Shown: positions 9,476 to 29,129, counted from the first letter of the stretch. The stretch is DNA of 32,000 bases from Nitratidesulfovibrio vulgaris str. Hildenborough (GCF_000195755.1 NC_002937.3:1230001-1262000); one strand, 5' to 3'. Made by a program: numbers and translations. Notes: generated from the sequence alone by a model not told the origin.

Positions 9476-9483
9476 TTCTACCC

Positions 9484-10251: not shown

Positions 10252-10272
10252 AAAAATCAACTGCACAAAAAA

Positions 10273-10324
10273 GCCCCGGTAATTTGCGTCTATTTCAGCG
10301 CAAACTCCGGGGCTTCCTTTTCTC
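10273..10324 (+). terminator. Rho-independent terminator after the repressor gene
   Basis: GCCCCGG (10273-10279) pairs with CCGGGGC (10307-10313). An inner stem pairs TTTGCG with CGCAAA. The T-rich tail is TTCCTTTTCTC. Confidence 0.55.
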
Positions 10325-10344
10325 ATCTTGAGTGACAAATCGCA
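10307..10344 (-). repeat. Mu L1-like terminal transposase-binding sequence (candidate prophage c-end)
   Basis: The minus strand reads TGCGATTTGTCACTCAAGATGAGAAAAGGAAGCCCCGG. It has the same geometry as the remembered Mu left end TGTATTGATTCACTTGAAGTACGAAAAAAACCGGG: TG at 1-2, CACT at 11-14, an A-run, then CCGG. Confidence 0.45.
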
Positions 10345-10501
10345 GAGCTTTTGCAGTCTCGTGCTCAACTCTTTAAGCGTGGGCAGATTGAGGCTCCCGC
10401 TCGTCTTTAACCCGCATCATTCCTAGATTCTTCCGACATCCTTCCTATTGGATCTAGGCCCCATGCCCTTTCTCAACTTCCGCTAGCCCCTATATTGGCA
10501 T

Positions 10502-10548
10502 TGTGTAGCGGGAAAATTGGCACTGGAAAGTACGGTAAAAAGCCCCGG
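10502..10548 (+). repeat. Second Mu-end-like sequence, facing outward from the prophage
   Basis: TGTGTAGCGGGAAAATTGGCACTGGAAAGTACGGTAAAAAGCCCCGG contains CACT-GGAAAGTACGG-TAAAAAG-CCCCGG, close to the Mu L1 core CACTTGAAGTACGAAAAAAACCGG. It shares AAAAAGCCCCGG with 10267-10279 and, in inverted orientation, with 10307-10320. Confidence 0.4.
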
Positions 10549-10890
10549 TAGCATGCTGGCTGGGAGCTCCGCCTTGGGCTAGTTTTGGGCCATGTTTTGA
10601 TCGGTCTCGGCGAAGCGGTTTGATGTCCTCTCATGGTACCCGGTGGAGAGCTCGATTCCGACGAATCGTCTGCCTGTATTGATACGGCACCGCTTGCGGT
10701 TCGAGTTCGGGGCGTGCGCGACAAATTGCGTCGAATATAGCCCCGTTCGAGGGAGTGAAGGTGGTGGGCTGAATGTGCTGAGCTAGTTATGGCCTGACAG
10801 GATGCCCTCCGAAAGGAAGTGGTCATGCTGTGCCCGACTGGGTAGCGATGAGGTCGCGACACTTCATCAGTCACCAGCAAGGAGGCCAAC

Positions 10891-11586
10891 ATGCCCACTG
10901 GCAGGAAGATAAAACGAAGGAAGTTGAGCCTGCTAGAGCTTGCAAGCGGACTGGATGGCGAGAGCAAGGGGGCCGTATTATTGGAGTATCCGGGGCTGCA
11001 GTTCGGTGAAATCCGCGAGCGCCATATTTAAACCCGGTGCAGCGGCTATCTGGTGGCTTTGGATACGTTTTCGTGGGGAAAGTCTATCTGCAATCAGCCA
11101 TCGACTGTCACATCCGCTACGCCTTCAGCTGGCTGTACACCAGTAAGCTGCCGGTTCCGGCGTTGCATATGCTCAACGAGTCTGTCCTGCCCTTTTTCGA
11201 CGGCACGACATGCCAGTCGTTACGGTGCATTCAGATAATGGCCGGGAATTCTGCGGACGCCACGACAGGCCACCCCTACGAGCTGTTCATGCAACTGGAA
11301 GGTGTCGAACATCGGACAATCCGGGGCAGCGTCCGCAAAGCAACGGCCTTGTGAAGCGAATGCTCAGGACATTGCTTGATGAATATTTCAGGATTCAGGG
11401 GCAGAAAAACTGGGTGAGTCACTGGGTGAAATGCAGACAGACCTTGATGCCGACTTGCGCCACTTCAACCACAAGCGGGCACACCAAGGCAGAAACATGA
11501 ACACCCGGACACCCTATCAAGCCTTCCTTGATAGCCTTCCCGAAGGGGAGCCGAAAGAAGACAACGAAGGACACTACGCAGTCTGA
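10891..11586 (+). pseudogene. IS481-family transposase pseudogene (internal deletion plus several frameshifts)
   Basis: Pieces lie in three frames: KLSLLELASGLDGESKGAVLLEYPGLQFGEIRERHI*, GKVYLQSAIDCHIRYAFSWLYTSKLPVPALHMLNESVLPFF, TVHSDNGREFCGR, HPYELFMQLEGVEHRT, RPQSNGLVKRMLRTLLDEYF and FNHKRAHQGRNMNTRTPYQAF. Together they follow the rve-type IS481 order. Confidence 0.75.
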
Positions 11587-11836
11587 TCAGCTCTCCAGCC
11601 GGTATGGCAAGTGTCAGTTGAATGCTATTTCTGCGCAAGTATTGCTTGCAAAATATTGTTGCGTACTTTGTGATAGTAAACTATTGTCACACGTTTTTTT
11701 GTTGTTTTTAGCGCGGCAGCTATTTAGGCCGTATGCGTTTCTGTGCGTAGATGACGAGCAGATTGACCTGCTTTATAGGCTTTTGCGGATGGTTAAGTGG
11801 CGTCACCTTAAACACTATTGATGAGTACTCTAGTCT

Positions 11837-13216
11837 ATGGTTTTTACATCGTTAACATTTATTTTCTTAATTTTACCGCTTTTTTTAGCTCTAGATGCTA
11901 GCGCAAAGTCTTCAAGAATCGACATTCGCAATGCCGTTCTCCTCTTTGTCAGCGTTGTCTTCTATACGTGGGGGGAAGGGGCAAACGTATTCATCCTTAT
12001 CCTGATGGGTATTATCAATTATATTGCGGGTGAAGTCATACATAAAGCAGACAACAAAAAGCCTTACCTCATATTGTTTGTAACTCTCAATCTTTTTACG
12101 CTGTTCTCATACAAGTTTCTCTGTTGGGTGGTTGCTGCGATTGCTCCTGGGGTTCAGTTTCCAAATATTGCTATGCCCCTTGGTATTAGCTTCTTTTCGT
12201 TTCATGCAATGAGCTATTTGTTCGATATTTATAGTGGTACAACAAAACCAGCTAGAAATATTAATGAATTTTTGACCTATTTTTGTATGTTTCCCCACCT
12301 CGTTGCGGGCCCTATAGTGCGATTCGCACAGGTAAAGAGTGATCTTGAAAAACGAGGGCCGAGCCGCGAACTTGCTATTTTCGGTGCCTACCGGTTTCTC
12401 TTGGGTCTGAACAAGAAAGTACTCATAGCAAATACGGTGGCTCCAGTCGCCGACACAGCGTTCCTGCTTTGTAAGCAAGGAGAGTTAAGCAGTCCTGACG
12501 CTTGGGTAGGTATCCTTGCCTATGCAGTGCAGATATATTTCGATTTTTCAGGTTATTCGGACATGGCCATCGGCTTGGCTGCCCTTGCAGGGTTCCATTT
12601 CGAAGAAAACTTCAAAAGACCTTATTCGAGTTTGACAGTCAGGGAGTTTTGGCGACGCTGGCACATTTCTCTGTCGACGTGGTTTAGGGACTATCTCTAT
12701 ATCCCGATGGGAGGGAATGCTCTAGGACGCACAAGGACATACGTTAACCTTGTCATGGTGTTCTTCTTGTGCGGACTGTGGCATGGTGCAAACGTCACTT
12801 TTATCGTGTGGGGGTTGTGGAATGGCTTTTTTCTTGTCTTTGAGCGAGTAGCATCAAAGTTTACATCCTTAAGAATGCCAAGCCCAGCATTGAAGGTTTA
12901 TTTTGTTTTAGTGACCCTCATCGGGTGGGTGTTTTTTAGGTCAGAAAATATTACACAGGCAATGGATTATATTGGAAGCATGTTTTCAAGCGGTGGATCG
13001 TTTACGCTGACAATTTATCATGCTGGTGCAATGGGCGTTCTTGCTGTTGCTCTCATGCTGTGTGCTGTCCCTGATAAGTATATTCCTTGTCCAGATTCTG
13101 CTAATCCAGATGATTTTTTTGTTGCACCATATGCAGCTCAAGCGGTGTTATCTTTTTTTTCAGTTGCAATGCTTCTTAAAAACATGCGAAATCCTTTTAT
13201 TTATTTTAATTTCTGA
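11837..13216 (+). CDS. MBOAT-family membrane O-acyltransferase (AlgI/DltB/PatA-like)
   Basis: 459 aa and polytopic. Motifs: FSFHAMSYLFDIY, FWRRWHISLSTWFRDYLYIPMGGN and LCGLWHGANVTFIVWGLWNG, which contains the conserved His. GC is about 40% against a background above 60%. Confidence 0.9.
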   Translation: MVFTSLTFIFLILPLFLALDASAKSSRIDIRNAVLLFVSVVFYTWGEGANVFILILMGIINYIAGEVIHKADNKKPYLILFVTLNLFTLFSYKFLCWVVAAIAPGVQFPNIAMPLGISFFSFHAMSYLFDIYSGTTKPARNINEFLTYFCMFPHLVAGPIVRFAQVKSDLEKRGPSRELAIFGAYRFLLGLNKKVLIANTVAPVADTAFLLCKQGELSSPDAWVGILAYAVQIYFDFSGYSDMAIGLAALAGFHFEENFKRPYSSLTVREFWRRWHISLSTWFRDYLYIPMGGNALGRTRTYVNLVMVFFLCGLWHGANVTFIVWGLWNGFFLVFERVASKFTSLRMPSPALKVYFVLVTLIGWVFFRSENITQAMDYIGSMFSSGGSFTLTIYHAGAMGVLAVALMLCAVPDKYIPCPDSANPDDFFVAPYAAQAVLSFFSVAMLLKNMRNPFIYFNF

Positions 13217-13217
13217 T

Positions 13218-14264
13218 ATGACTAAGCAACGTATAACGATCATGCTTTGTGCCGTTCTTTTTTGTGCGGCACTCGGTGTTTATGCTCCGTTGAAGTCTTC
13301 AGTCCTTGAGACTGAACGGCGATTGGCGTCAGCTTTTCCTGAGTTGCCACATGGTATTTCTTCAGGAAAAATTAAAAAGTTTTGCGCTGGAATAGATAGA
13401 TTTTATGCAGACCATTTCCCACTGCGCAGTACTATCCTTAGTGCTGCGTCCGTAATCTTCGCCTACACAGGCAATCACTATGATACGAGCAGGTGTTATC
13501 AAGGAAAGAGTAATTGGCTGTTTCTCGGGAATGATTATAGTAAATGCGTAGACAAGCTCACAGGTAAAGAAAGTCTCAATGAAAACCAGATAGAGCGCAT
13601 GGCAGCGAAATATTCACGGCTGCAAAGGCTTGTCGATAGCGGGGCGTCCCAGTTTTTAATCTTGATAGGACCTAATAAATCAACGATTTATGGAGAGCAT
13701 CTTCCGGGTTTTATATTCCCTTCGCGCGTACGATATATATCTCCTCTCGTAGCCAAGCTGCGAGCAATGAATATTGATGTCTATGACCCGACAGAACGCC
13801 TTATGTCTTTCAAATCAAATCGTCTTCTTTACTACAGAACTGATACTCATTGGAATCTGCTCGGAGCATACGTTGCATTTGAAGGCTTGCGCGAGTACGC
13901 AAAATGGCCACCCCTCTTTCCGGCTACGTTCAAAAATGTGCCTAGTAAGCATGGCGATCTTGTTAATATTGGAGGGTATACTTCTTTTCATATTATAGAT
14001 GATGATACTTTTTCTTTAAATGACTTCCACATACAGTCTTCACCTAGCCAAGACGATACAATTACTACTGTTCAAGCGAGCAGTGATAAGGCCGTATGGG
14101 TGTTTGGAGATTCCTTTACAGAAGCACTTAAGCCGTTCATACAGGCACAATTTCGAACGGTGCGGTACTTCAAGCATGATGACTTTAAAAAGGTTATGAA
14201 GTCGGACGCACCTCGTCCTGACATTGTGCTGTGGGTTGTCGTTGAGCGCAACTTCGCAGAATAG
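13218..14264 (+). CDS. AlgJ/AlgX-type (DHHW/SGNH-like) periplasmic O-acetyltransferase partner
   Basis: The ATG at 13218 lies 1 nt after the MBOAT stop. There is an N-terminal TM anchor, and YYRTDTHWN is the D-x-H-W signature of AlgJ-like proteins. The track ORF start at 13020 overlaps the MBOAT gene. Confidence 0.7.
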   Translation: MTKQRITIMLCAVLFCAALGVYAPLKSSVLETERRLASAFPELPHGISSGKIKKFCAGIDRFYADHFPLRSTILSAASVIFAYTGNHYDTSRCYQGKSNWLFLGNDYSKCVDKLTGKESLNENQIERMAAKYSRLQRLVDSGASQFLILIGPNKSTIYGEHLPGFIFPSRVRYISPLVAKLRAMNIDVYDPTERLMSFKSNRLLYYRTDTHWNLLGAYVAFEGLREYAKWPPLFPATFKNVPSKHGDLVNIGGYTSFHIIDDDTFSLNDFHIQSSPSQDDTITTVQASSDKAVWVFGDSFTEALKPFIQAQFRTVRYFKHDDFKKVMKSDAPRPDIVLWVVVERNFAE

Positions 14265-15424: not shown

Positions 15425-15877
15425 GACGATGGAGTCCTTGGCCTGCGTCACGAACTAATAGCTGGATACATGGGGGGGAAAGGTCACGCAAGCCCGACGG
15501 AGAACGTCCTCCATCTGTCTGCACTGGCGGGCCACGGCACCATGGAGGTGGGTAAGGAGGTGTATGCGGCCTGCGGAGAGGGCAATGTCCCAGTAGCCCA
15601 GTAAACGCCGCGCCTGACGCTGAGGGCTGTGTCAGGAGGTGGTTTAGCCTGTCGACACGTGGCATCACCTGTCGACTGTCTTTACAATGCATTAGATGAA
15701 CATGATCTTTCTTTACATCATGTTGCATTGCCGCGTCGGCAATGAGTTGTCGGAAGACCTTACAGTTGCCTGAAGTGGATGTCTTTTGTCGTAATTATGT
15801 ATGATATAGCAGTATGTTAGTGTGTTATTTCTGGCGGTATGCAACTTGCAAATCGATGACATACTATGGAGGTTCTT

Positions 15878-16705
15878 ATGAGACTTGTCGCTCTTTTTGC
15901 ATCGTTTTGCATGATCGTGTCGCTTATGTTGTCACCGGTAAGGGCCTCGACGATCTATCAGATTGATGATGGCATCGGAGACGAGTCCATCGGCGTGACA
16001 ACACCAGGCCTCTCGTGGACATGGATGAACAGTTTCAATGCCGTGGGAGGACAGGATCAGATAACCAGCGTGAGTATTATGTGGGGTCAGGTGAGCGACG
16101 GGCTTGCTGCCCTGGTCAAGATTTGGGACGATCCCAACAATGACGGCAACCCCAATGACCGGGTGCTCTTGAACACCCTTGAGGTTGTCATCTCCAACGC
16201 CAATACGGACGTCTTCAGTCTCTACGACATCGCCGATACGCTTGTGTCGGGTTCGTTCTTCGTCGGAGTGGAGATGGCTTCTGATTCGAATATGTACCCT
16301 GCCCGTATCGACTTTACCTTGCCCCACCAGCAAAGAAGCTGGGTAGGCACACTGGATGGGCAGATTGCCATGAACCTGATCGACAACTACGGCTACGCCG
16401 GAAACTGGATGATCAGGGCCAACGGTGCTGGAACCGCACCAGTGCCGGAGCCGTCAACCTTCTTGCTGCTCGGTTCGGGCCTGCTTGGGTTGTTCGCCTT
16501 CAGGGCTCGACCAGAGCGTGACTGGACTTGCCAGAATGATCAGCCGGGGGGCGCAAAGCTCCCCGGCTTTGTGTTGCTGGCGATAGGGAAGGTGCTGGAG
16601 GTTGGCCTTGGGCAGGTCGGCCTCGTGGTGCGGGGTGACGCACAGCACTCCACCGCGCGGACCGGGCGTGTCGCTCTTGCGCTGGGGAACGGACGTGGAC
16701 AATGA
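15878..16705 (+). CDS. Secreted PEP-CTERM-domain protein with an aberrant C-terminal extension
   Basis: GGAGG lies 7 nt before the ATG at 15878, followed by a signal peptide. VPEPSTFLLLGSGLLGLFAFRAR (16442-16510) is a PEP-CTERM sorting motif. About 65 further codons run antisense into the high-GC IS5-like remnant. Confidence 0.65.
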   Translation: MRLVALFASFCMIVSLMLSPVRASTIYQIDDGIGDESIGVTTPGLSWTWMNSFNAVGGQDQITSVSIMWGQVSDGLAALVKIWDDPNNDGNPNDRVLLNTLEVVISNANTDVFSLYDIADTLVSGSFFVGVEMASDSNMYPARIDFTLPHQQRSWVGTLDGQIAMNLIDNYGYAGNWMIRANGAGTAPVPEPSTFLLLGSGLLGLFAFRARPERDWTCQNDQPGGAKLPGFVLLAIGKVLEVGLGQVGLVVRGDAQHSTARTGRVALALGNGRGQ

Positions 16706-17370: not shown

Positions 17371-18810
17371 CTATTTAATCGATTTGAGTTTTTTTATTTT
17401 TGCACTCAATGCTTGTTGGGTTATGCCGAGAAGTCCAGATGCTACTGTCTGATTGCCACCAGATATTTCCATGGCTTTGCATATGAGTTTTGATGTCATC
17501 GTGTCGATGGCAGACTTGAGTGTGGGAAGATTTTCTGTTGTGAATTGTAAGGTTTCTAAATCGTCCGTTGTGCCTATTGATGATGTGAGCAATTTTGTGT
17601 CGCATTCGTTCATTATGTATTGTCTGAAAGAAGATGAGGATAGCATGTGTGAAGCATGATTCATGAATGCATCGGAAATCATGCCGCGAAGTTCTCGGAT
17701 ATTGCCGGGAAAGGCATAAGACCTGAGCAGATTGATTAGTTCCGGGTGGTATGACGGCGGCTTGCGTTTCTGTTCCCGTGCGTCAAGTTCGAGGAAGTGG
17801 TCGAGGAGGCAGGGAATGTCGCCAGGCCTCTCTCTCAGTGGAGGAATGTGTATCCTGTGTGTCGTGAGCCTGTAGTAGAGGTCGTCTCTAAAGAGTCCCC
17901 TGTGCCGCAGGTCGACGAGGTTCTTGAGGGTCGATGCCACGATTCGAACGTTGGCCTTCTTCGCGTTGTCTGACCCTACGGGGAAGTACTCCTTCTCCTG
18001 CAACAGCCGTAGCAGCTTGACCTGTGACAGTGCTGGCAAGTCGCCTATCTCGTCGAGGAACAGCGTCCCCCCCGCCGCCTTTTCGACAAGCCCTGCCCGG
18101 GGCGTGTCGGCACCTGTGAAGGCACCTCTGGAGTGTCCGAAGAGCGTGTCGGCGAAGACCGGGTCATCGAAAGCCGCGATGTTGACGGCGACGAACTCGC
18201 CCTTGCGTCCGCTCAAGCGATGGAGCGCCTGCGCGACAAGCTCCTTGCCAGTCCCTGTCTCTCCGGTGATGAGTATGGGCTTCGTGCTCGGGGCGACTGC
18301 CTCACAATACCTGAAGATTGCATGCATCTTTTGGTCCTGAGTGACGATATCTGAAAAGGCCTCAGGATGCCGTATTTCTCCATCCAGAAGAGATGCACGC
18401 AGAAGCCGATTCTCACGCTCAAGTTCCCGTCGCTCCAATGCCTGCTGAACCCTGTTGCGCAGATGGTCCTTGTCTACCGGTTTGAGAATGTAGTCCTGCG
18501 CGCCGTTGCGTATGCACTCAACCACCGAATCTATGTCGTTCACGGCCGTGATGATGATTATCGGTACCTCGGGCCGTCTGCGCTTTATCTCCTCGATGAG
18601 TTCAGTGCCGCTCACATGGGGCATGATGAGGTCCAGCAGTATGAGCTCGGCTTCATGCTCGGCAATGAAGGGCAAGACCTTTCTGCTGTCGTCCATGGTG
18701 ACGATGTTGGTGTAGCCCGATGACACCAGCGCGACCTCGAAGCCGTCGAGTGCGGCTCGTTCGTCGTCAACGACAAGTATGGGGCGCTCGGGGAAGACTC
18801 GTGTACTCAT
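17371..18810 (-). CDS. Sigma-54-dependent response regulator (NtrC family: REC + AAA+ + Fis-type HTH)
   Basis: Receiver: ILVVDDER...LILLDLIMP...ITAVNDID...DYILKP. Walker A: GETGTGKE. GAFTGA loop: SRGAFTGA. Also FLDEIGDL and the C-terminal HTH GGNQTVASGLLGITQQALSAKIKKL. The start forms an ATGA overlap with the kinase stop. Confidence 0.92.
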   Translation of the reverse strand: MSTRVFPERPILVVDDERAALDGFEVALVSSGYTNIVTMDDSRKVLPFIAEHEAELILLDLIMPHVSGTELIEEIKRRRPEVPIIIITAVNDIDSVVECIRNGAQDYILKPVDKDHLRNRVQQALERRELERENRLLRASLLDGEIRHPEAFSDIVTQDQKMHAIFRYCEAVAPSTKPILITGETGTGKELVAQALHRLSGRKGEFVAVNIAAFDDPVFADTLFGHSRGAFTGADTPRAGLVEKAAGGTLFLDEIGDLPALSQVKLLRLLQEKEYFPVGSDNAKKANVRIVASTLKNLVDLRHRGLFRDDLYYRLTTHRIHIPPLRERPGDIPCLLDHFLELDAREQKRKPPSYHPELINLLRSYAFPGNIRELRGMISDAFMNHASHMLSSSSFRQYIMNECDTKLLTSSIGTTDDLETLQFTTENLPTLKSAIDTMTSKLICKAMEISGGNQTVASGLLGITQQALSAKIKKLKSIK

Positions 18811-21800
18811 GGCAAAGGCTCCTGCTGCTGGAGGGGGGGGCGCTCTGGTGCCTGAAATCTGAGCGTCACGGTGGTTCCCCGGCCCGGTTCGGAAGAGAAT
18901 TGCATGTTGCCTCCATGTTCCTTGATGATTCCCGCCGAGACCGAGAGACCGAGTCCCGTTCCGCCCTGATCACGCTTCGTGGTATAGAACGGGTCGCAAA
19001 TGTGCGTGAGTTGCTCCTGTGTTATGCCATGCCCCTCGTCGACGATTTCGAAGCAGACAGTGCCGTCTGCCCGGTAGGTGCGCATGTGAATGCCCTGCCG
19101 CCTGTTTTGCAGGGCCTGATAGGCGTTCTGGATGAGATTGACGAGTATCTGCTCTATGCGTCGCTGGTCGCCCCGAAAGGCAGGCAGTCCGTCCTCGGTC
19201 TCGACGACGAGCCGGTTGGTGGCCTTCCGCAGTGGCGTTGTCAGCAGTTCGAGCGCAGAATGCACGGCCTTGTTCAGGTCGACGCTCCCGCTCATGTCCA
19301 GCGGCACTTGCCGGGCATAGTCCTTCAGGTTGCAAATGATAGTGGACACGCGTTCGGCTCCCTGATGGATGCCGCGCAGCAGTTTCGGAATGCTCTTGCG
19401 CGCGTAGTCGAACGGCATTCCCGCTATCCACAGGTCTTCCTTTTTGCTCTCGCGGTCGAGAATGTGGATGGAGTCGTCCCATATGGATTGCAACAGGCCG
19501 ATATTCATGCGGATGAAACTGGAGGGGTTGTTGATCTCGTGCGCCACGCCCGCGACAAGAATGCCAAGGGACGCCATCTTGTCTGCCTGCCTCACGGATT
19601 CGAAACTGCGTTCCAGTTCTTCGGTGCGCAGCCTTACCTGACTTTCGAGACTCTCGTTCAGTTCTTTGAGGCGTTCTTCGCTGTGGCGGAGTTTTTCCTC
19701 GGCGAGTTTGCGTTCGGTGATGTCGTCCAGCAACCATATGCTGCCGTATTCCACATGGACGGGATCGACGACACTGACGGAGAGTACGCACCAGTACTGT
19801 TGCGTGCTGGAATGGAAGATGGGCAGTTCGACATCGAACTTCCCGCCACTTACATGGGCGGCGCGCACTTCGTTCATGATGTCGGTGCCGGTACCCAGCT
19901 TGGCGAGGATGGTGCCAAGGGGCATGGTCGCCCCTTGCCGCAGGTCGTCGGCAAGGCCACACAGCCGCATGAAACGGTTGTTGCCCCACACCACCCGCTT
20001 CTCTCGCACGTAGGCGATGCCGATTGAAGCGTTCTCGAGTATGAGGCGCTGCTGGCTGGCCGATTCCGCCAGCTGGGCGCTCATGGCCTCACGTCTTTTG
20101 ACCTCTTCGTTCAGTTCGTGGATGTGCCTGTCCAGTTCGTCTTCAGTCCGCAGTCGCGTCTCCTGGATGAGCGATGACCACCATACCCATATGCCGTTGA
20201 TGAGCGAGGAGAAGACGAAGATCGTGGCACATATCTCTTCTAGCAGGGGGCTGCCGAGCCCCGTGTTCCTGAAGTAGGCGTAGCAGAGGACGAAGATGAG
20301 GGCCTGTGCACAGAAGATATTGAAGAAATGCAGGCAGAATATCTTGGCCCTGCGGCTGAGGTGCAGGAACGGGAGGGGAATCTTCGCCTCGTCCCATGCC
20401 TCCTTGCGTCCGGCCGTTGCGTGCGCGAGGCGTTTGCAGAAACCTCCGCATACGCTGTCGAGGGAACAGCATAGCGAGCATACGGGTTCGTCATAGGCGG
20501 GACAGTACACCATGTCGCCCGCCTCGTAGCTGTTGCCGCAGGTGGTGCATGTGGTGCTGGCGGTGAGCGAGACCGGTTCGGCCTTGCGCGCCATGTAGTA
20601 CTTGCCGCCTGTGAGAAGGGCTATGCCCACTGCCGTGGGGACGGAGACGACGAGGGCGACGAGGGGGGCGAACGCTTGCGGCAAGGGGCCGAAAGCCCCC
20701 CGGTAGCAAAGGAGGGACACGCCAGACGCCATGAGCATGGCGCCGAAGCCCACGGGGTTGAGGTTGTACAGGTTGGCCCTCTTGTATTCGATGTGCCTCG
20801 GGCTGAGGCCGAGGGGCTTGAGGATGACAAGGTCGGCGAAGAGGGCCCCCACCCACGAGACGGCGAACATCGCATAGACCATCAGCACCGAATGCAGCAG
20901 GTAGAAGACGCCGAACTGCATGAGCAGAAGGGATATCGTCACGTTGAAGACGAGCCACAGCGCCCTGCCGGGGTGGCTGTGAGAGATGCGTGAGAAGAAG
21001 TTCGACCATGCCAGCGAGCCGGCGTAGGCGTTGGTGACGTTGATCTTCACCTGACACACGATCACGAAGATGGTTGTCGTGGCGAGAGTGAGCCCGCCCG
21101 TTCCGAGCAACGCCGAGAAGCCGTTGTAGTAGAGATTCACGGGGTCGAGCGCGTCGCTGATGCGCGCTCCGGCTTTCTGCATGAAGTACACGGCGAGAAA
21201 GGAGCCGCCCAGAAGTTTCAGGCATCCGACGACTATCCAGCCGGGCCCGGCCGCCGCCATGGAGAGCCACCACGCGCCTTTGTTCTCTGGTGTCTTGTCG
21301 GGAAGAAAGCGCAGGTAGTCCACCTGTTCGCCAATCTGGGGGACGAGCGAGAAAAGCACGGAGAGTGCACCGCCGAAGAGCAGGGGGTCGAATCCCGCCG
21401 CCATGCCGTCCTTGCCTGTATATTCGACCCAGGCATCAAGCGCGGTCGGGTCGCAGGTGAGGATATAGGCGAACAGTATCACGGTGAGCACGACCCACAC
21501 CGGCTGGGTGTACAGTTGCAGCTTGTTGATGAAGGTTATGCCGTAGAAGACCAGCGGGATGATGACCACCGAACTGATCAGGTAGCCCAGGTGTATAGGG
21601 ATACCCAGCCCGACGGAGAGGGCCTTGGCCATTATGGCGGCTTCGATGGCGAAGAATATGATGGTGTAGGACGCATAGATGAGCGAAGTGACAGTCGAGC
21701 CGTAATAGCCGAACCCGGCTCCTCGCGTGAGTAGGTCGATATCCACGTTGTAGCGCGAGGCGTAGTACGAGATGGGCAGCCCGGTGAGGATGATGATGGC

Positions 21801-22064
21801 CGAGACGCAAAGGATGGCAAGCGTGGAATTGACGAAGCCGTTGTTGAGCACGAGCAGGGCACCGATGGCCTCAAGGGCCATGAAGGTGATGCCTCCGAGC
21901 GCCGTATTGGCCAGCAGCCAGCAGGGCCAGCGCCTGAACGACTTGGCGGCACTGCGGAGCGAATAGTCCTCTATGGCCTCGTTGACCACGAGCGCGTTGT
22001 AAATCCTCCTGCGTTTCAGGGCTTTTATCGACAGGCTTCGCGCATCGTGAAGTGGGGTTTGCAT
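18807..22064 (-). CDS. Hybrid sensor histidine kinase: permease-like 12-TM domain, Cys-rich cluster, extra TMs, PAS, HisKA and HATPase
   Basis: Residues ~30-495 are polytopic with NCS1/CodB-like motifs (EDYSLRSAAKSFRRW, GEQVDYLRFLP). Residues ~505-545 read CTTCGNSYEAGDMVYCPAYDEPVCSLCCSLDSVCGGFCK. A PAS-like region follows. The H-box is AGVAHEINNP (His codon 19539-19541). N and G boxes include DEGHGI and GGTGLGLSVS. Confidence 0.9.
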   Translation of the reverse strand: MQTPLHDARSLSIKALKRRRIYNALVVNEAIEDYSLRSAAKSFRRWPCWLLANTALGGITFMALEAIGALLVLNNGFVNSTLAILCVSAIIILTGLPISYYASRYNVDIDLLTRGAGFGYYGSTVTSLIYASYTIIFFAIEAAIMAKALSVGLGIPIHLGYLISSVVIIPLVFYGITFINKLQLYTQPVWVVLTVILFAYILTCDPTALDAWVEYTGKDGMAAGFDPLLFGGALSVLFSLVPQIGEQVDYLRFLPDKTPENKGAWWLSMAAAGPGWIVVGCLKLLGGSFLAVYFMQKAGARISDALDPVNLYYNGFSALLGTGGLTLATTTIFVIVCQVKINVTNAYAGSLAWSNFFSRISHSHPGRALWLVFNVTISLLLMQFGVFYLLHSVLMVYAMFAVSWVGALFADLVILKPLGLSPRHIEYKRANLYNLNPVGFGAMLMASGVSLLCYRGAFGPLPQAFAPLVALVVSVPTAVGIALLTGGKYYMARKAEPVSLTASTTCTTCGNSYEAGDMVYCPAYDEPVCSLCCSLDSVCGGFCKRLAHATAGRKEAWDEAKIPLPFLHLSRRAKIFCLHFFNIFCAQALIFVLCYAYFRNTGLGSPLLEEICATIFVFSSLINGIWVWWSSLIQETRLRTEDELDRHIHELNEEVKRREAMSAQLAESASQQRLILENASIGIAYVREKRVVWGNNRFMRLCGLADDLRQGATMPLGTILAKLGTGTDIMNEVRAAHVSGGKFDVELPIFHSSTQQYWCVLSVSVVDPVHVEYGSIWLLDDITERKLAEEKLRHSEERLKELNESLESQVRLRTEELERSFESVRQADKMASLGILVAGVAHEINNPSSFIRMNIGLLQSIWDDSIHILDRESKKEDLWIAGMPFDYARKSIPKLLRGIHQGAERVSTIICNLKDYARQVPLDMSGSVDLNKAVHSALELLTTPLRKATNRLVVETEDGLPAFRGDQRRIEQILVNLIQNAYQALQNRRQGIHMRTYRADGTVCFEIVDEGHGITQEQLTHICDPFYTTKRDQGGTGLGLSVSAGIIKEHGGNMQFSSEPGRGTTVTLRFQAPERPPLQQQEPLP

Positions 22065-22307: not shown

Positions 22308-22814
22308 TCATTCGCCGATATGCTGCCTGTGCGTGTCATGCCCCCGGACTTCGGCGATGTGGCGTTCGCGGCAGGTATCCGAGCAGAAGTCGCCGGATGG
22401 CTCTTCTGCTGTTGCAGGCTCTTCACCGGCATGGCGTTCCCTGGTGATGAATCTTGTGCCGCAGTGGTCGCATACCTCGGTCGTGCTCTTGATCAGCGTG
22501 ACCAGACATCGTTCGGAGCAGACAGCAAGCTCCTCCCTGGCACCGGCGCGGACGGTTGCAGGGCTTCCGCACACCCGGCAAGGGACGGCGGCGGTGGCTG
22601 CCATCAGGTCGGTGCCGCATGCGGGGCAGAATAGCTGCGGCCTGATTGTCATGCGGTCACCGCAGCGTGGGCACGAAGTGCGCATCGGCCCTCCGCAATG
22701 GGGGCAACTGCCCGTGTCGCCAGACTCCGTGCGGGCGGCATGGGGAAGTTGAGACTGGCCTGAACGCCCGGAACAGTAGGGATTGGGGCAGTATGCGTAA
22801 GCGTGGTTGTCCAT
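22308..22814 (-). CDS. Multi-zinc-ribbon protein (about seven Cys pairs), function unknown
   Basis: The ATG at 22814 has the RBS GAGGTG (GTG at 22820 is an alternative). Motifs: CPNPYC, CPHCGGPMRTSCPRCG, CPACG, CRVCG, CSERC, CDHCG and CSDTC. It has its own sigma-54 promoter. Confidence 0.6.
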   Translation of the reverse strand: MDNHAYAYCPNPYCSGRSGQSQLPHAARTESGDTGSCPHCGGPMRTSCPRCGDRMTIRPQLFCPACGTDLMAATAAVPCRVCGSPATVRAGAREELAVCSERCLVTLIKSTTEVCDHCGTRFITRERHAGEEPATAEEPSGDFCSDTCRERHIAEVRGHDTHRQHIGE

Positions 22815-22868
22815 GTTCACCTCGATGAGGGAAGAGGGTGCATTGGGGGCAAACTGTCATCGGGTAGA

Positions 22869-22884
22869 AGCGAGCACCATGCCA
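22869..22884 (-). promoter_or_regulatory. Sigma-54 (-24/-12) promoter of the zinc-ribbon ORF
   Basis: The minus strand reads TGGCATGGTGCTCGCT, with GG and GC at canonical spacing. It lies about 50 nt upstream of the ATG. Confidence 0.6.
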
Positions 22885-22958: not shown

Positions 22959-22978
22959 GTCACAACGTCTGTTGTGGC
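22959..22978. promoter_or_regulatory. Candidate enhancer (UAS) palindrome CACAA-N6-TTGTG
   Basis: GTCACAACGTCTGTTGTGGC. Its centre lies 86 bp upstream of the -24 GG of the 22869 promoter. Confidence 0.5.
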
Positions 22979-23138: not shown

Positions 23139-24188
<1,050 letters not shown>

Positions 24189-24419
24189 TCAGACTGAAGT
24201 CTTCATTTCAGCCTTGAGTTTGTCTTTTTCTTTCGCCTTTGCCAGTCCACCGAGCATGTTCCGTTCCCAGTGGTCGGCGTTGCGATAATAGGTGATGGAT
24301 ATGATGCGCGTTGTCTGGACACTTTTGCAGAATGGACAGACAGCCTGTGCATCATCCTTTCCTCCAATGACTTCGAACCAATCGGAACATTGGTCGCATA
24401 TGTATTCATAGATCGGCAT
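24189..24419 (-). CDS. fmdB: FmdB-family zinc-ribbon protein
   Basis: MPIYEYICDQCSDWFEV...CPFCKS is the CxxC...CxxC FmdB/TIGR02605-type signature. It is the first gene of the UT transcription unit. Confidence 0.85.
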   Translation of the reverse strand: MPIYEYICDQCSDWFEVIGGKDDAQAVCPFCKSVQTTRIISITYYRNADHWERNMLGGLAKAKEKDKLKAEMKTSV

Positions 24420-24451: not shown

Positions 24452-24467
24452 AGCGATAATCGTGCCA
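24452..24467 (-). promoter_or_regulatory. Sigma-54 promoter of fmdB-UT
   Basis: The minus strand reads TGGCACGATTATCGCT. It lies about 33 nt upstream of the fmdB ATG. Confidence 0.65.
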
Positions 24468-24543: not shown

Positions 24544-24559
24544 CACAAACGTCCTTGTG
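24544..24559. promoter_or_regulatory. Candidate UAS palindrome CACAA-N6-TTGTG
   Basis: CACAAACGTCCTTGTG. Its centre lies 86 bp upstream of the -24 GG of the fmdB promoter. Confidence 0.5.
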
Positions 24560-24739: not shown

Positions 24740-26014
24740 TCAGGATGTCTCGCCGGCTGCCTGTTGCTCGAGGAACATGCGCCGCCTTATCTGGCGCAGG
24801 TCCATGCAGAGGAGGCAGGAGACGATGAACGCGAAGGTGAGGAAGCCGGTGAAGATGTAGAGAGTCATCGTATAGCTGCCCGTCGCTTCCAGCACGCGCG
24901 TGACGATAGACGGCCCGACCATGCCTGCGATGCCCCATGCGGTCAGCTCGTAGCCGTGGATGGTGCCGAGTTGCTTGGTTCCGAACATGTCACCGAGGAA
25001 GGCTGGAAGAGTGGAGAACCCCCCGCCGTAACAGGTCAGGATGATGAAGATGAGGCACTGGAACCCCAGATGACTGGTGGTCGTCGTCAACGCCATGAAC
25101 GCGCATATCTGGATGAGGAAGAAGGCCATGTATGTGCGCCCGCGACCGAGGTAGTCGGAGAGGCTGGCCCAGCCGATTCTCCCCCCGCCGTTGAAGAGCC
25201 CCATGAGTCCGACCATCGTGGCTGCCTGCATCGGTGAGAGTCCGATGACTTCCTGCGCCATGGGAGACGCGACGGAGATGAGAGCGATGCCGCAAGTGAT
25301 GTTGATGAACAGCATGAGCCACATGAAGTAGAAACGCTTGGTGCGGATGGCCTCGGCAACCGTGTACTGACCAAGGTCCCTCTTGAGGGTCCTGCCAGCG
25401 GATTGCTGTCCCTGTGCGGCATATCCGGGAGGGACCCAGCCCTCGGGAGGCGGCGCCAGATACAGGGATGACCCGTAGATGAGGCAGAAGTAGATGGCCC
25501 CGAGAACGAAGTACACCTGCCAGATCTCCATGATCTGGAAGAGTTTCGCCATGATGGGCCCGAAGATCATCGCCGCGAAGCCGAATCCCATGATGGCCAT
25601 GCCCGTTGCCAGCCCTCGACGGTCGGGGAACCATTTCACGAGCGTGGAGACAGGCGTGATATAGCCGACCCCCAGGCCGATGCCCCCGATCACACCGTAG
25701 CTCAAGAGGAACAGGGGCAGTGATCCCAGCTTGACGGCGATGCCGGCCCCCATGATGCCCGCCGTGTACAATATGCCCGCAAGGCGGCCTGAATTGCGCG
25801 GCCCCATCTTCTCGACCGAACGGCCGAGGAATGCGGCTGAGAATCCCAGAAAGAGGATGGCGAGACTGAACGCCAACGTGATGTTGCTCTTCTGCCAACC
25901 ATGTAACTGGTTGAGCGGCAGCGTCATGACACTGTAGGCGTAGACGGAACCGATGGAGATGTGCACGCCCACTGCCGATGCGGCTATGAGCCAGCGGTTC
26001 TTCACTTTATCCAT
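24740..26014 (-). CDS. MFS transporter, oxalate/formate antiporter (OFA) family
   Basis: The ATG at 26014 has the RBS AGGAGAAAG. The sequence NRWLIAASAVGVHISIGSVYAYSV...WFPDRRGLATGMAIMGFG is typical of OFA/OxlT-like MFS transporters. The track ORF start at 26389 is an extension. Confidence 0.85.
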   Translation of the reverse strand: MDKVKNRWLIAASAVGVHISIGSVYAYSVMTLPLNQLHGWQKSNITLAFSLAILFLGFSAAFLGRSVEKMGPRNSGRLAGILYTAGIMGAGIAVKLGSLPLFLLSYGVIGGIGLGVGYITPVSTLVKWFPDRRGLATGMAIMGFGFAAMIFGPIMAKLFQIMEIWQVYFVLGAIYFCLIYGSSLYLAPPPEGWVPPGYAAQGQQSAGRTLKRDLGQYTVAEAIRTKRFYFMWLMLFINITCGIALISVASPMAQEVIGLSPMQAATMVGLMGLFNGGGRIGWASLSDYLGRGRTYMAFFLIQICAFMALTTTTSHLGFQCLIFIILTCYGGGFSTLPAFLGDMFGTKQLGTIHGYELTAWGIAGMVGPSIVTRVLEATGSYTMTLYIFTGFLTFAFIVSCLLCMDLRQIRRRMFLEQQAAGETS

Positions 26015-26133: not shown

Positions 26134-27138
26134 CTACAGTCCGAAGCGGCCGCCGGTGGTGGGGTAACCGTATATGGAGCCGTCCTTGATCTTGATCTTG
26201 TCTTCCCAGGGCAGGTGGTACTTGCCGGCGGCGAAGTCCTTGACCCAGGTGTAGGGGCAATCCTTGACGCCACCGGGATGAGCGACGTAGCCGCGGGTGC
26301 CCACGTTGAAGATGTTGTTTTCCAGACCCCAGTCGGTGCGAGCCTGGTCGGCCATCTTGGGGAACACTTCGGCGGTGACGATCTCCCACGGGTTGCGATG
26401 GCCCTGTACGAGCGTCGTCCCGTCGAAGTTGCAGACCTGACCTTCACCAAAGTAGTAGAACACGCCATCGTAGCCGGCGAGGTTGACGGCTGCGGTGTAC
26501 ATGAGGTTGTGCCACGCGTTCGAGCGGTTGGTCAGTATCCACTGCTCGTTGACCTGCGTGCTGTAGCCGGAGATGCGGATGTAGACGTTGCAGCCCTTGT
26601 AGGCGGCTTCACGCGCCTGCTCGGGGAACATGCCGTCATGGCAGATGCACAGGGAAAGCTTGCTGCCGCCGGGGCCGTCGCACACGGGCTGGCCCAGATC
26701 GCCGGGCATCCAGGGCTCGATGGGCACCCACGGGTTCAGCTTGCGGTACTTCAGGGCGAGCTCGCCCTTGTTGTTGAAGATGACCGCAGTGTTGTAGGGC
26801 ATCTGGTTCTTGTTGGGGTTGCGTTCCATGATCGAGAACACGCCCCAGACGTCATTTTCCTTGCAGGTCTGGGCGTAACGCTGGAAGAGGGGCTCCTCGA
26901 CATCCATCAGGAACTCTTCGGTGACCCACTTCTTGGTGTTCAGGCCCTGCGTGCTGTATTCGGGCCATACGATGAGATCCATGCCGGGGTAGCCAGCCTT
27001 GGTGGCGGCGGTGGCGGCGCAGATGCGATCGACGCTGGCTTCGATGTCGCGACGGGAGTTGACGATGGGCACAGGGTACTGGACGAGTCCCATCAGCATG
27101 CCTTCACTCGGCTTGTTCATGCTTCCGATGCTTCCCAT
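26134..27138 (-). CDS. amiF: Formamidase (nitrilase superfamily, AmiF type)
   Basis: MGSIGSM...VPIVNSR...[22 protein letters not shown]...[14 protein letters not shown]...[10 protein letters not shown]...[25 protein letters not shown]...[16 protein letters not shown] is nearly colinear with the remembered H. pylori AmiF. The ATG at 27138 has the RBS GGAGGAA. Confidence 0.95.
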
Positions 27139-27230: not shown

Positions 27231-27246
27231 AGCGACAAGTGTGCCA
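27231..27246 (-). promoter_or_regulatory. Sigma-54 promoter of amiF
   Basis: The minus strand reads TGGCACACTTGTCGCT. It lies about 90 nt upstream of the amiF ATG. Confidence 0.7.
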
Positions 27247-27310
27247 AATGCAGACATGCATCTATGATTTTGATATTTATGATTGTTTTGCTTGTCGTGT
27301 CAGTTGGGGG

Positions 27311-27330
27311 GCCACAACGTGGTTTGTGGC
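27311..27330. promoter_or_regulatory. Candidate UAS palindrome (proximal)
   Basis: GCCACAACGTGGTTTGTGGC has perfect 7-bp arms. Its centre lies 76 bp upstream of the -24 GG. Confidence 0.55.
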
Positions 27331-27377
27331 AGGGCATGGGGAATAGCGGAGACTGGCACTACACAAGCCCTCGGCGC

Positions 27378-27396
27378 TCACAACGACTTTTGTGGG
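27378..27396. promoter_or_regulatory. Candidate UAS palindrome (distal)
   Basis: TCACAACGACTTTTGTGGG. Its centre lies 66 bp from the proximal site. Confidence 0.5.
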
Positions 27397-27612
27397 ATGC
27401 AGGGAGTTGGTTGGAGACCTGGTGGCAGTCCTGTCTGCGTTGCAAAGGGACGGGGTCGATGTGGAGAAAGATGCAGGAATCGCCTGTAGCGGTGGTGGGT
27501 TGCCGAGGTGCGGCGCAAGGCTGTTGAAGGCATCCCCTTGCGCTGTCTGTGGTTGGTGCGGCAACGAGGGCGCAGGGCAGCCGGTATCGCCGGGCAATCT
27601 TTGCAACCGGCG

Positions 27613-27641
27613 TGACAGGATGGCCCGGATATATCTATAAT
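27613..27641 (+). promoter_or_regulatory. Possible sigma-70 promoter for ndh
   Basis: TGACAG, a 17-bp spacer, then TATAAT. It lies about 170 nt upstream of the ndh ATG. Confidence 0.35.
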
Positions 27642-27809
27642 CCGATCGTATGCCGGTAGTGGTGTCCGCTGCAGGGGCGGGGAACGGTTCTTTTGTGCGG
27701 CAGGGTGCCACTGGAATCGTGCACACGGCGGGCACAGGGCCCTGATACTGCATCGGGCAGGCATAGGGCAGGGGCATGGCAGGTACATCCGTCGTCAGGC
27801 AGGTCGGGC

Positions 27810-29129
27810 ATGGACAAAGCGCGTGTTGTGGTGGTCGGGGCCGGTTTCGCCGGGTTGTGGGTGGTGCGTCGTCTCGCGTCGGAGAAGGATGTGGAGGTGA
27901 TGTTGCTGGACAGGCACAACTACCACACCTTTCTCCCGCTGCTGTATCAGGTGGCGGCGGCGGAACTTGAGCCGGAACAGATAGCCTATCCCCTGCGGGG
28001 CATATGCCGCAGGCATTCCAACGTGCGGCTTGCCGTGACGGAGGTGCGGGGCATCGACACCGCCCGCAAGCTGGTTCGCGCCGACGGTCTGGATATTCCC
28101 TATGACTATCTGGTTGTCGCGGCGGGTAGCCGCACCGCCTATTTCGGGGTGCCGGGCGCAGAGGAGCATTCCTTCAGCCTTAAGACGCTGGAGGAGGCTG
28201 TCTGCCTTCGCAATCAGATCATCAGTTGCTTCGAGCAGGCCGCGCTGGAGTCCGACCCTGAACGGCGACGGGCGATGCTGACCTTCACCGTCGTGGGCGG
28301 CGGTCCCACCGGGGTAGAGTACGCCGGGGCGCTGGCTGAACTTGTGCGCGCCCCGCTGCGCAAGGATTTTCCCGAACTGGACATGAACGAGGTACGTGTG
28401 GTGCTGCTTGAGGCCGCACCGGGGGTTCTGGGGGGATTTCCCGAACGGTTGAGAGGTTATGCGAAGAAGCGGCTGGGGGCGATGGGCGTCGACGTGCGCC
28501 TTGATGCCAGTGTCGCCGAGGTGACGGCAGCGGGCGTGCTGTTCGCCAGCGGCGAGCATCTGCCCACACATACGGTCGTCTGGACAGCGGGCGTGCGCGG
28601 CGAAGTCGTGGCAGAGCACATGGGGCTGCCACTGGGGCGTGGCGGACGGGTCGCGGTGTTGTCTACGCTTCAGGTCGAAGGGCTGCCGGAGGTGTTCGTG
28701 GTGGGCGACATGTCGTTGCCGGAAGGACAGAACCCGCCCATGAACGCCCCCAACGCCACGCAGCAGGGGCGTCTTGCCGCCGAGAACATCCTCGCCATGC
28801 TTCAGCGGCGCGACCCTGTCCCGTTCCGCTACCGCGACAAGGGGGCCATGGCTACCATCGGGCGTCAGGCGGCTGTGGTGCGGATGGGGAACTTCGCCTT
28901 TTCAGGATTTCTGGCGTGGCTGCTGTGGCTTTTCGTGCACCTTGCGTACCTGATAGGTTTTCGCAACCGGCTCATCGTGCTCATCAACTGGGCATGGGAC
29001 TACCTGTTCTACGAACGGGCTGTGCGGCTCATCCTGCCACGGCGCGGCTGCGGGACGATAGACAGCCGCAAGCGGGAGGCGGCGCAGGGGGCGGGTGACG
29101 CCGACAGGCCGGGGGCGACCTGTTCATAG
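27810..29129 (+). CDS. ndh: Type II NADH dehydrogenase (NDH-2)
   Basis: VVVVGAGFAGL Rossmann motif, HNYHTFLPLLYQVA, and a second dinucleotide fold FTVVGGGPTGVEYAG. The ATG is at 27810; the track start at 27693 is an extension. Confidence 0.9.
   Translation: MDKARVVVVGAGFAGLWVVRRLASEKDVEVMLLDRHNYHTFLPLLYQVAAAELEPEQIAYPLRGICRRHSNVRLAVTEVRGIDTARKLVRADGLDIPYDYLVVAAGSRTAYFGVPGAEEHSFSLKTLEEAVCLRNQIISCFEQAALESDPERRRAMLTFTVVGGGPTGVEYAGALAELVRAPLRKDFPELDMNEVRVVLLEAAPGVLGGFPERLRGYAKKRLGAMGVDVRLDASVAEVTAAGVLFASGEHLPTHTVVWTAGVRGEVVAEHMGLPLGRGGRVAVLSTLQVEGLPEVFVVGDMSLPEGQNPPMNAPNATQQGRLAAENILAMLQRRDPVPFRYRDKGAMATIGRQAAVVRMGNFAFSGFLAWLLWLFVHLAYLIGFRNRLIVLINWAWDYLFYERAVRLILPRRGCGTIDSRKREAAQGAGDADRPGATCS

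Follow-up and report, generated by a model that had tools for sequence, protein, structure and literature searches.

The stretch of DNA analysed here, 32,000 nucleotides from Nitratidesulfovibrio vulgaris str. Hildenborough (NC_002937.3:1230001-1262000; the ‘window’), carries on its minus strand a sensor histidine kinase gene, DVU1157, that an original prediction had described as the fusion of a 12-helix permease-like sensor, resembling the NCS1 transporter CodB, to a PAS-HisKA-HATPase output, by way of a Cys-rich cytoplasmic segment and three more transmembrane (TM) helices. The gene (18807..22064) is indeed a single unbroken open reading frame (ORF) with an ATG start, encoding 1085 amino acids (aa), and exact-sequence look-up identified its product as AAS95635.1 / WP_010938454.1 / UniProt Q72CX6 of N. 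(Desulfovibrio) vulgaris Hildenborough. That the kinase gene is DVU1157 and the adjoining regulator gene DVU1156 follows from their consecutive accessions (AAS95635.1 and AAS95634.1), together with the assignment of AAS95638.1 as ‘Urea transporter DVU1160’. A generic annotation of DVU1157 is already on record. An artificial fusion, produced by misassembly or a frameshift, can be ruled out because an identical protein is present on 76 contigs and full-length homologs occur in complete genomes.

Read from its N-terminus (and with all coordinates on the minus strand), the protein begins with a K/R-rich cytoplasmic segment (aa 1-47; 21924..22064), modelled at low confidence by AlphaFold2, that holds the start of an EDYSLR..SFRRW motif, which hhalign pairs with the N-terminus of CodB. 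It continues with the 12-TM, NCS1/CodB-like sensor domain of LeuT fold (aa 48-485; 20610..21923), delimited by AlphaFold2, Foldseek and hhalign; a cytoplasmic domain with eight cysteines (the ‘8-Cys domain’, aa 503-545; 20430..20558), presumed to bind metal, that is marked by the invariance of its cysteines and modelled as a mini-domain; a TM13-TM14 hairpin (aa 566-634; 20163..20369), evident from hydropathy and the model, that brings the chain back to the cytoplasm; a coiled-coil extension of TM14 followed by a PAS domain (aa 635-795; 19680..20162); a DHp (HisKA-like) helical hairpin with the phospho-acceptor His842 in the motif AHEINNP (aa 803-917; 19314..19658); and finally a catalytic ATP-binding domain (aa 930-1072; 18849..19277).

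The fold of the sensor domain was assigned by structure prediction. The AlphaFold2 model of residues 1-500 (pLDDT 78, pTM 0.80) contains 12 TM helices, with helix breaks in TM1 (near residue 61) and TM6 (at 241-242), and a hydropathy scan likewise places hydrophobic helices up to about residue 489, in keeping with the 12-TM N-terminal half that had been proposed. When this model was compared with the Protein Data Bank (PDB) using Foldseek, all significant matches were LeuT-fold transporters rather than proteins of some unrelated fold, and the top five were CodB (7qoa) and Mhp1 (4d1a, 2jln and 2x79), with E-values from 8e-9 to 8e-8 and TM-scores of 0.60-0.74. CodB itself was matched at E 8e-9 with a TM-score, normalized on the target, of 0.72-0.74, and the Mhp1 entries at E 3e-8 to 8e-8; proteins of the SSS, APC, Nramp and LeuT types ranked after these NCS1 proteins (E 7e-7 to 1e-3).

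A profile-profile comparison pointed in the same direction. A profile of 79 family sequences, aligned by hhalign to a CodB profile, extended over 353 columns with an E-value of 7.9e-5 and a probability of 61%. Among single-sequence comparisons, CodB reached E 1.6e-4, as against 0.14 for AllW (another NCS1 protein of E. coli), 0.25 for PutP (SSS), 0.28 for AdiC (APC) and 0.33-0.89 for reversed sequences. The alignment pairs several recognizable motifs of the family with counterparts in CodB (EDYSLR..SFRR with NNFSQG..SARK, LTRGAGFGYxGS with LAR-FSFGVKGS, DYLRF with DFVRF and, in TM8, NVTN---AYAGSLAWSN with TTNDNALYASGLGFAN), and the two motifs singled out in the original prediction, EDYSLRSAAKSFRRW (from aa 32) and GEQVDYLRFLP (from aa 245), are both present and both fall opposite their CodB equivalents. 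A distant homolog (P0226, 33% identical) also gave an end-to-end match to the Pfam family Transp_cyt_pur, at a score below threshold (17.9 bits against a cut-off of 23.5; E 0.0014).

Direct sequence searches, including the Pfam test that had been suggested as a check, came up empty: Transp_cyt_pur (PF02133) matched neither the window protein nor 10 homologs even at E<=10, no other transporter family was matched by aa 1-500 or those homologs at the same threshold, residues 1-660 remained without any Pfam match at that level, and PDB sequence searches with phmmer (single sequence) or with an 11-sequence profile returned nothing for the N-terminal domain. For that reason the link to NCS1 could be made only through structure prediction and profile-profile comparison, and the relationship must be regarded as remote: the domain is a distant CodB-type relative of NCS1 that lies outside the Pfam model. 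Since the Pfam threshold for NCS1 is not reached, the proper description should be ‘NCS1-like’, rather than a member of the NCS1 family. With that proviso, the identification of the domain as an NCS1-related sensor of LeuT fold can be made with high confidence. An SSS-type domain, of the kind found in CbrA, was considered and rejected, given the lower Foldseek ranking of SSS proteins and the hhalign value for PutP.

The hhalign register, itself an alignment of moderate confidence, offers a view of the putative binding pocket. Within CodB, we take N275, T278 and T279 to form the sodium site and Q105, W108 and N280 to contact cytosine. In the DVU1157 family, the equivalents of N280 and T279 are kept (N345 and T344), those of W108 and Q105 are replaced (F137 and T134), and all four of these residues are invariant; at the same moderate level of alignment confidence, N275 corresponds to K340, an invariant lysine. 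These aligned substitutions (F137, T134 and K340) fit a ligand that would be smaller and non-aromatic, together with independence from sodium.

The Cys-rich cytoplasmic segment that had been noted after the permease-like domain proved to be a strongly conserved module. In a 27-sequence alignment C506, C509, C521, C529, C532, C533, C539 and C543 are all invariant, and the resulting motif (C-x2-C-x(11)-C-x7-C-x2-C-C-x5-C-x3-C) is found in 71 of the 72 kinases from genome loci and in 179 of 185 family proteins that reach far enough, the exceptions being apparent frameshifts or very divergent members. The full-length AlphaFold2 model (pLDDT 74) forms residues 503-535 into a small, beta-rich Cys domain and leaves 544-567 as a disordered linker. 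This domain corresponds to no Pfam family and to no sequence in the PDB, where its best match (respiratory syncytial virus glycoprotein G, E 0.34) is attributable to chance; a B-box-like zinc finger, considered on the strength of the cysteine spacing, found nothing in its support.

Beyond the Cys domain, hydropathy (573-600 and 604-634) and AlphaFold2 (TM13 at 566-600 and TM14 at 606-677, the latter as one helix) agree on two TM helices, rather than the three originally proposed; two is also the number demanded by topology for a cytoplasmic kinase, provided that the NCS1-like domain has its N- and C-termini on the cytoplasmic side. The remainder of the protein is as anticipated: a PAS domain (a weak PAS_8 match at 672-710, and a PAS-like beta sheet in the model at 682-781), a weak HisKA match (834-918) over DHp helices modelled at 803-873 and 885-917, and HATPase_c (965-1072, E 7e-25) within a modelled ATP-binding domain at 930-1071. 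H842, E843 and P847 are invariant in the DHp hairpin, as are N976, N980, D1009, G1011, G1013, G1035, G1037 and G1039 in the ATP-binding domain, so that the H-box histidine and the N, G1 and G2 boxes of a histidine kinase are present. In a Pfam scan of the full protein at E<=0.01, the only families matched were PAS_8, HisKA and three of HATPase_c type. Against NCBIfam models, the kinase core scores highest with AtoS and ZraS and the regulator with NtrC and AtoC, in all cases far below the equivalog cut-offs.

The family to which the sensor domain belongs is large, and is covered by no Pfam model. A word-indexed search returned more than 4451 related protein clusters, and an exhaustive search of 50%-identity representatives returned 1458 proteins at E<=1e-3 (342 at E<=1e-30). 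The fusion is likewise real and widespread: a scan of one genome per species confirmed at least 597 stretches, with the matches listed all 52-59% identical to the window domain and drawn from Bradyrhizobium, Pseudomonas, Burkholderia, Marinobacter, Alcanivorax, Cellvibrio, Polyangium, Sorangium, cyanobacteria and others. A set of 70 sequences, drawn from loci of cyanobacterial, myxobacterial, Desulfovibrionaceae and proteobacterial origin, shows no variation at all at 87 positions, many of which lie in the motifs of TM1, TM3, TM6 and TM8. The partners of the module include plain kinases, hybrid kinases and a PAS-GAF-PAS-GGDEF-EAL protein (P0138), and there are stand-alone homologs of about 550 aa (P0166, P0175, P0185 and P0186) that consist of the permease-like domain and the Cys domain, with no output domain. 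In a Leptolyngbya locus the module is present twice, one copy being an ORF of 547 aa. Some homologs already bear the name ‘signal transduction histidine kinase/purine-cytosine permease-like protein’ in JGI annotation, a label derived from COG.

The proposed coupling of an NCS1-type input to genes of amide catabolism holds far beyond the Hildenborough locus. Among 83 non-redundant homologous loci (of which 80 are genome loci, the best-scoring of at least 597 matches), an amidase gene (formamidase, acetamidase or aliphatic amidase) is found within 10 kb in 59, and in 51 of the 62 loci with full flanks. The amidases are of several types (over the 83 loci, FmdA_AmdA 56, AmiE-like CN-hydrolase 21 and AmiF-type 2), a binding protein of FmdD/UrtA type is present at >=40% identity in 33 loci, genes for ABC permeases and ATPases recur, and a LuxR-type regulator is encoded in 54. 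A single, nearly unchanging sensor module is thus associated with amidases of two unrelated folds and with uptake systems of two unrelated kinds. Closer to home, the seven genes of the Hildenborough locus recur in unchanged order in D. aminophilus, and a locus from a metagenome-assembled Pseudodesulfovibrio genome carries the same gene set, rearranged.

In the window those seven genes, all on the minus strand, run in the order AmiF-type formamidase, MFS transporter, FmdB-like zinc ribbon, urea-transporter-family (UT) channel, 170-aa multi-CxxC ORF, kinase and sigma54-dependent regulator. The formamidase DVU1164 (26134..27138; CN_hydrolase; 611 bits with NF009803 against a cut-off of 406) likely starts at Met9 of the listed ORF, on the basis of start-codon inspection and a published promoter offset of -110. 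The MFS transporter (24740..26014, about 424 aa) is of oxalate/formate and monocarboxylate type (MFS_1; NF049980 at 413.9 bits; TIGR00890), its start having been revised to an ATG at 26014 that is accompanied by a Shine-Dalgarno-like sequence; its D. aminophilus ortholog has 422 aa. The FmdB-like protein (24189..24419, 76 aa) matches Zn_ribbon_8 above the Pfam cut-off (E 3.5e-12) and has an ortholog in D. aminophilus, while the multi-CxxC ORF upstream of the kinase (22308..22820), which resembles a double zinc ribbon (DZR, E 6e-6, just below the Pfam cut-off), has counterparts in D. aminophilus, where the protein is 172 aa long and 41% identical, and in the Pseudodesulfovibrio locus (32%). Each of these two small zinc-ribbon proteins sits behind a sigma54-type element and palindrome of its own.

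The UT channel, dvUT (DVU1160; 23139..24152; Pfam UT E 1e-97), is identical to ‘Urea transporter DVU1160’, and its sequence cluster includes the chains of PDB entries 3K3F, 3K3G, 3M6E and 3ME1, the crystallised bacterial urea-transporter homolog. Its natural substrate may be formamide rather than urea, given its place in a formamidase locus, the DVU1156 palindrome and sigma54 promoter ahead of it (see below) and the report that strain Hildenborough can draw its nitrogen from formamide but not from urea (PMC10102598). The last gene, DVU1156 (17371..18810), encodes a sigma54-dependent response regulator with REC, AAA+ (with GAFTGA) and Fis-type helix-turn-helix domains, as assigned by Pfam, NCBIfam and identity to AAS95634.1; the regulator start and the stop codon of the kinase gene share an overlap of 4 nucleotides, and the two proteins are taken to be cognate partners. 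In published work, DVU1156 is listed as a sigma54 two-component regulator with a single target, DVU1164, under the heading ‘Amide metabolism’ (Kazakov et al. 2015, PMC4641369). The helix-turn-helix segment of the regulator in the window, AIDTMTSKLICKAMEISGGNQTVASGLLGITQQALSAKIKKL, appears in supplementary file 2 of that study in the row labelled DVU1419, not DVU1156, a mismatch that may come from rows displaced either in the file itself or when its text was extracted.

Three sigma54-type elements of the form TGGCAY-N5-TCGCT are present, one in each of the three intergenic gaps that precede minus-strand units of the locus. The element ahead of the formamidase, TGGCACACTTGTCGCT (27231..27246), coincides exactly with TTTGGCACACTTGTCGCTA, the DVU1164 promoter given in supplementary file 6 of PMC4641369. 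Two more -24/-12 elements are predicted upstream of the FmdB-like ORF and dvUT (TGGCACGATTATCGCT, 24452..24467; equivalent at 7560-7575 in D. aminophilus) and upstream of the unit comprising the Cys-rich ORF, kinase and regulator (TGGCATGGTGCTCGCT, 22869..22884; equivalent at 9153-9168), all three being read on the minus strand. Upstream of the formamidase promoter lie two DVU1156 binding sites, CACAAACCACGTTGTG (27313..27328) and CACAAAAGTCGTTGTG (27379..27394), which in their minus-strand reading agree letter for letter with the sites published at -190 and -256. The same palindrome, CACAA-N6-TTGTG, recurs at 24544..24559, as a predicted site upstream of the FmdB-like/dvUT promoter (equivalent at 7469 in D. 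aminophilus), and at 22961..22976, as a presumed site of the kinase unit (D. aminophilus matches at 8985 and 9060), where a motif scan also found a weaker copy, ACAA-N6-TTGT (23049-23062).

The full palindrome is present four times in the 32 kb, as compared with 0.02 copies expected, always upstream of a sigma54-type element of this locus, and each copy (the weaker fifth one included) lies 80-150 bp upstream of such an element. D. aminophilus shows the same 2+1+2 arrangement of palindromes, with the sigma54-type elements also kept. In the Pseudodesulfovibrio locus the palindrome is not clearly enriched, with 2 one-mismatch matches against 1.07 expected. The palindromes and putative promoters of the two further units are additions to the published DVU1156 regulon, as read from sequence.

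The surroundings of the locus are of other kinds. An ORF at 27277..27777 (minus strand) is probably spurious, as it matches no family and overlaps the regulatory region. On the far side of the formamidase lie an NDH-2-like pyridine nucleotide-disulphide oxidoreductase (27693..29129, plus strand) and, at the window edge, a fragment of a methyl-accepting chemotaxis protein (31035..31997, minus strand). In the other direction, a PEP-CTERM motif protein (15866..16705, plus strand) is probably DVU1152, which has been listed as a sigma54-dependent gene of exopolysaccharide and biofilm formation (PMC4641369). A low-GC island (11837..14264, plus strand; 42-49% GC) encodes an MBOAT-family O-acyltransferase and an AlgX-like SGNH-domain protein, a pair reminiscent of polysaccharide O-acetylation genes and probably acquired horizontally. 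Positions 1 to about 10400 bear signs of a Mu-like prophage, with a Mu-type transposase (5666..7828, minus strand; Mu-transpos_C, HTH_Tnp_Mu_1 and rve), a CI-like repressor with Peptidase_S24 (9424..10251, plus strand) and a GC content of 63-68%, compared with about 60% around the kinase locus.

The domain architecture, the fold and profile relationship, the synteny and the arrangement of promoters and palindromes rest on the analyses described above, and the link from DVU1156 to DVU1164 is in print. From these, and from the reported ability of strain Hildenborough to grow on formamide nitrogen (PMC10102598), we infer that a DVU1157-type protein is probably an amide sensor and, for Hildenborough (at a probability of roughly 60%), that DVU1157 is the membrane sensor that switches on the uptake and breakdown of formamide, or of short-chain amides more generally, through this regulon. 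The ligand, its transport, the coupling path and the two further promoter units are the conjectural parts of such a scheme. A small amide (formamide, possibly acetamide or urea) would bind in a central pocket formed by TM1, TM3, TM6 and TM8 of the degenerate CodB-type domain, which may also carry its ligand across the membrane. Ligand-dependent switching of the fold would be passed through TM12 to the 8-Cys (probably metal-binding) domain and from there to the TM13-TM14 hairpin, and the long TM14 helix would relay it through the PAS domain to the DHp helices, setting the level of autophosphorylation at His842. The phosphoryl group would be transferred to the sigma54 activator DVU1156, acting from its CACAA-N6-TTGTG sites upstream of the three -24/-12 promoters to turn on the formamidase and MFS genes, the FmdB-like ORF and dvUT, and (by autoregulation) the Cys-rich ORF, kinase and regulator. 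In the resulting pathway dvUT would serve uptake and the formamidase hydrolysis, the MFS transporter might handle the formate, and the system would drive its own synthesis.

A number of observations weigh against that reading. When mutants were assayed in pools, loss of DVU1164 caused no drop in fitness on formamide. The ligand, its binding and any transport by DVU1157 are deductions from sequence, PF02133 failed to match at all, and the hhalign probability of just 61% means that some of the residue-by-residue correspondences with CodB could be mistaken. In about one locus out of four there is no amidase within 10 kb (including those with cyanobacterial psaAB neighbours and the signalling clusters of Polyangium), and the pocket motifs are identical in amidase-linked and unlinked loci; the ligand may for that reason be more general than formamide. 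The linkage figure of 71% is itself biased, since the 80 genome loci behind it are the best-scoring of at least 597 matches, a set rich in Bradyrhizobium. Within the window, the number of sigma54-like matches is not above chance, so that it is the position of the three elements that counts, and two of the three units assigned to DVU1156 (the FmdB-like ORF with dvUT, and the Cys-rich ORF with kinase and regulator) are predictions.

Several other explanations of the same protein can be put forward. One, which strikes us as unlikely while being the strongest of them, is that the permease-like domain is purely a receptor, in which an amide is bound but the transport cycle is disabled, with uptake left to dvUT in Hildenborough and, in Proteobacteria, to ABC transporters of FmdD type. 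In its favour, the neighbourhood always encodes an uptake system of its own (dvUT in the window, ABC transporters at many of the other loci), the domain escapes the NCS1 model of Pfam, and invariance at 87 positions is what one would sooner expect of a finely adjusted signalling protein than of transporters that handle diverse substrates; yet none of the 12 helices has been lost, TM1 and TM6 retain their breaks, and the stand-alone versions of about 550 aa, lacking any output domain, could be working transporters. The invariant K340 can be argued in both directions, as it aligns with N275, presumably a sodium-site residue of CodB. A lysine at the equivalent site has been reported also in CbrA, which is proton-coupled and active in transport (PMC13022988).

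It is less probable again that the signal is something other than an amide, for example a redox or metal cue perceived by the 8-Cys domain (through an Fe-S or Zn site) or another small solute of nitrogen status, with the amide genes being one of several outputs. The 8-Cys motif equals the pocket in its invariance, the outputs of the module include a GGDEF-EAL protein (P0138), the fmd cluster of M. methylotrophus is subject to repression by ammonia as well, and some members have no amidase nearby, as in the cyanobacterium Desertifilum, where the kinase (10001..12880 of its locus) lies between psaA/psaB and psaI/psaL, and in Polyangium, where the homolog is part of a signalling cluster. Eight cysteines in a small beta-rich domain would, however, suit a structural zinc site equally well, and linkage to amidases of two unrelated folds in 59 of 83 loci, extending over cyanobacteria, Desulfovibrionaceae and proteobacteria, is hard to explain otherwise. 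The kinase might, finally, read the state of a partner transporter (dvUT or an ABC importer) by direct contact, as DcuS does with DctA, leaving the permease-like domain as mainly a docking platform. Such ‘co-sensing’ is established for other two-component systems, and a transporter is encoded in most loci. This is nevertheless the least credible of the alternatives, and a very improbable one, for the partner differs wholly between lineages (a UT channel in one, an ABC importer in another) while the sensor domain hardly changes, and the invariant residues occupy interior motifs aligned to TM3, TM6 and TM8 of CodB rather than the outer face.

If DVU1157 is taken as a sensor of short-chain amides, a wider proposal can be built upon it, which is advanced tentatively and at somewhat less than even odds. 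The NCS1-like domain and the 8-Cys domain together would constitute a module dedicated to the reception of formamide, acetamide or urea, distributed across several phyla and signalling by alternating access; they would represent a third, independently evolved and by far the most widespread class of ‘transceptor’, in which the 8-Cys metal domain couples input to output as STAC does in CbrA, and would supply the long-missing sensor for the induction of fmd and ami genes. The induction of fmd genes by formamide and urea has been known since the 1990s, and a review of formamide metabolism names just FmdB, as a ‘putative positive regulator’, with no mention of a sensor or two-component system (PMC10781810). 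Searches of the literature on NCS1-kinase and cytosine permease fusions, transceptors, amidase two-component systems, fmd regulation and the locus tags yielded no description of a sensor of this type.

What was already known comprises the gene and its generic annotation, the JGI label and the link from DVU1156 to DVU1164 (PMC4641369). What appears to be new is the assignment of a fold to the sensor, the discovery of its invariant Cys module, the scale of the family and the association with amidases across phyla. Transporter-fused kinases have been treated as rare curiosities (CbrA has been termed a ‘rare transceptor’; PMC13022988), and the present family is a large one, built on another transporter family and equipped with a new 8-Cys coupling domain. 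Its neighbouring genes point to short-chain amides and so provide a testable ligand hypothesis, which makes the family a good candidate for the missing sensor of such compounds. Hildenborough is a tractable model organism in which the sites of the regulator are mapped and the crystallised dvUT adjoins the kinase, and both genetics and biochemistry are feasible.

Several features of the system recall better-known ones. Downstream of the kinase, the GAFTGA motif, the -24/-12 promoters and the upstream activator sites of the DVU1156 system are those of NtrB/NtrC and AtoS/AtoC, from which it differs in an unrelated input module and in scores far below the equivalog cut-offs. In its proposed biological role, the amide-responsive control of a short-chain amidase operon, DVU1157 would resemble AmiC/AmiR of Pseudomonas aeruginosa; in contrast, AmiC is a soluble protein, similar to binding proteins, that sequesters an RNA-binding antiterminator (PMC13209695), and that system has no membrane sensor, phosphorelay or sigma54. 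With CodB (E. coli and Proteus; 7qoa) and Mhp1, the sensor domain shares R-x-FG-x-x-GS before TM3, D-[YF]-x-R-F in TM6 and N-x-T-N...Y-A-x-x-L in TM8, but identity to them is just 17-18%, there is no Pfam match and the domain is fused to signalling domains. In the alignment, W108 of CodB falls opposite Phe, Q105 opposite Thr and N275 opposite Lys, and the substrate of the domain is probably much smaller than a nucleobase.

The fusion of a transporter fold to a histidine kinase is of a kind known from CbrA/CrbS and from Ks-Amt5. The original prediction had held that such kinases use SSS domains, which is correct for CbrA and CrbS but overlooks the published Amt-fused kinase, Ks-Amt5 of ‘Ca. Kuenenia stuttgartiensis’, in which the fold of a transporter for nitrogen compounds has likewise been re-used as the sensor of a fused kinase (PMC5764959). 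The fold in that case is unrelated (an Amt/Rh trimer, as opposed to LeuT), and the ligand and the partner genes are different. The closest parallel in overall design is provided by CbrA and CrbS (MxtR) of Pseudomonas and Vibrio, where a LeuT-fold transporter domain stands N-terminal to a PAS domain and histidine kinase in one polypeptide, and where catabolism of the sensed nutrient is controlled through the cognate regulator. Even the invariant lysine of the DVU1157 family, aligned to what we assume to be a sodium-site residue of CodB, has its counterpart there. CbrA carries a lysine in its Na2 site (PMC13022988). What distinguishes DVU1157 from both is an input domain that is NCS1-like, of CodB type, rather than SSS (SLC5), an 8-Cys domain and two-TM hairpin as linker in place of STAC, and its linkage to amidases.

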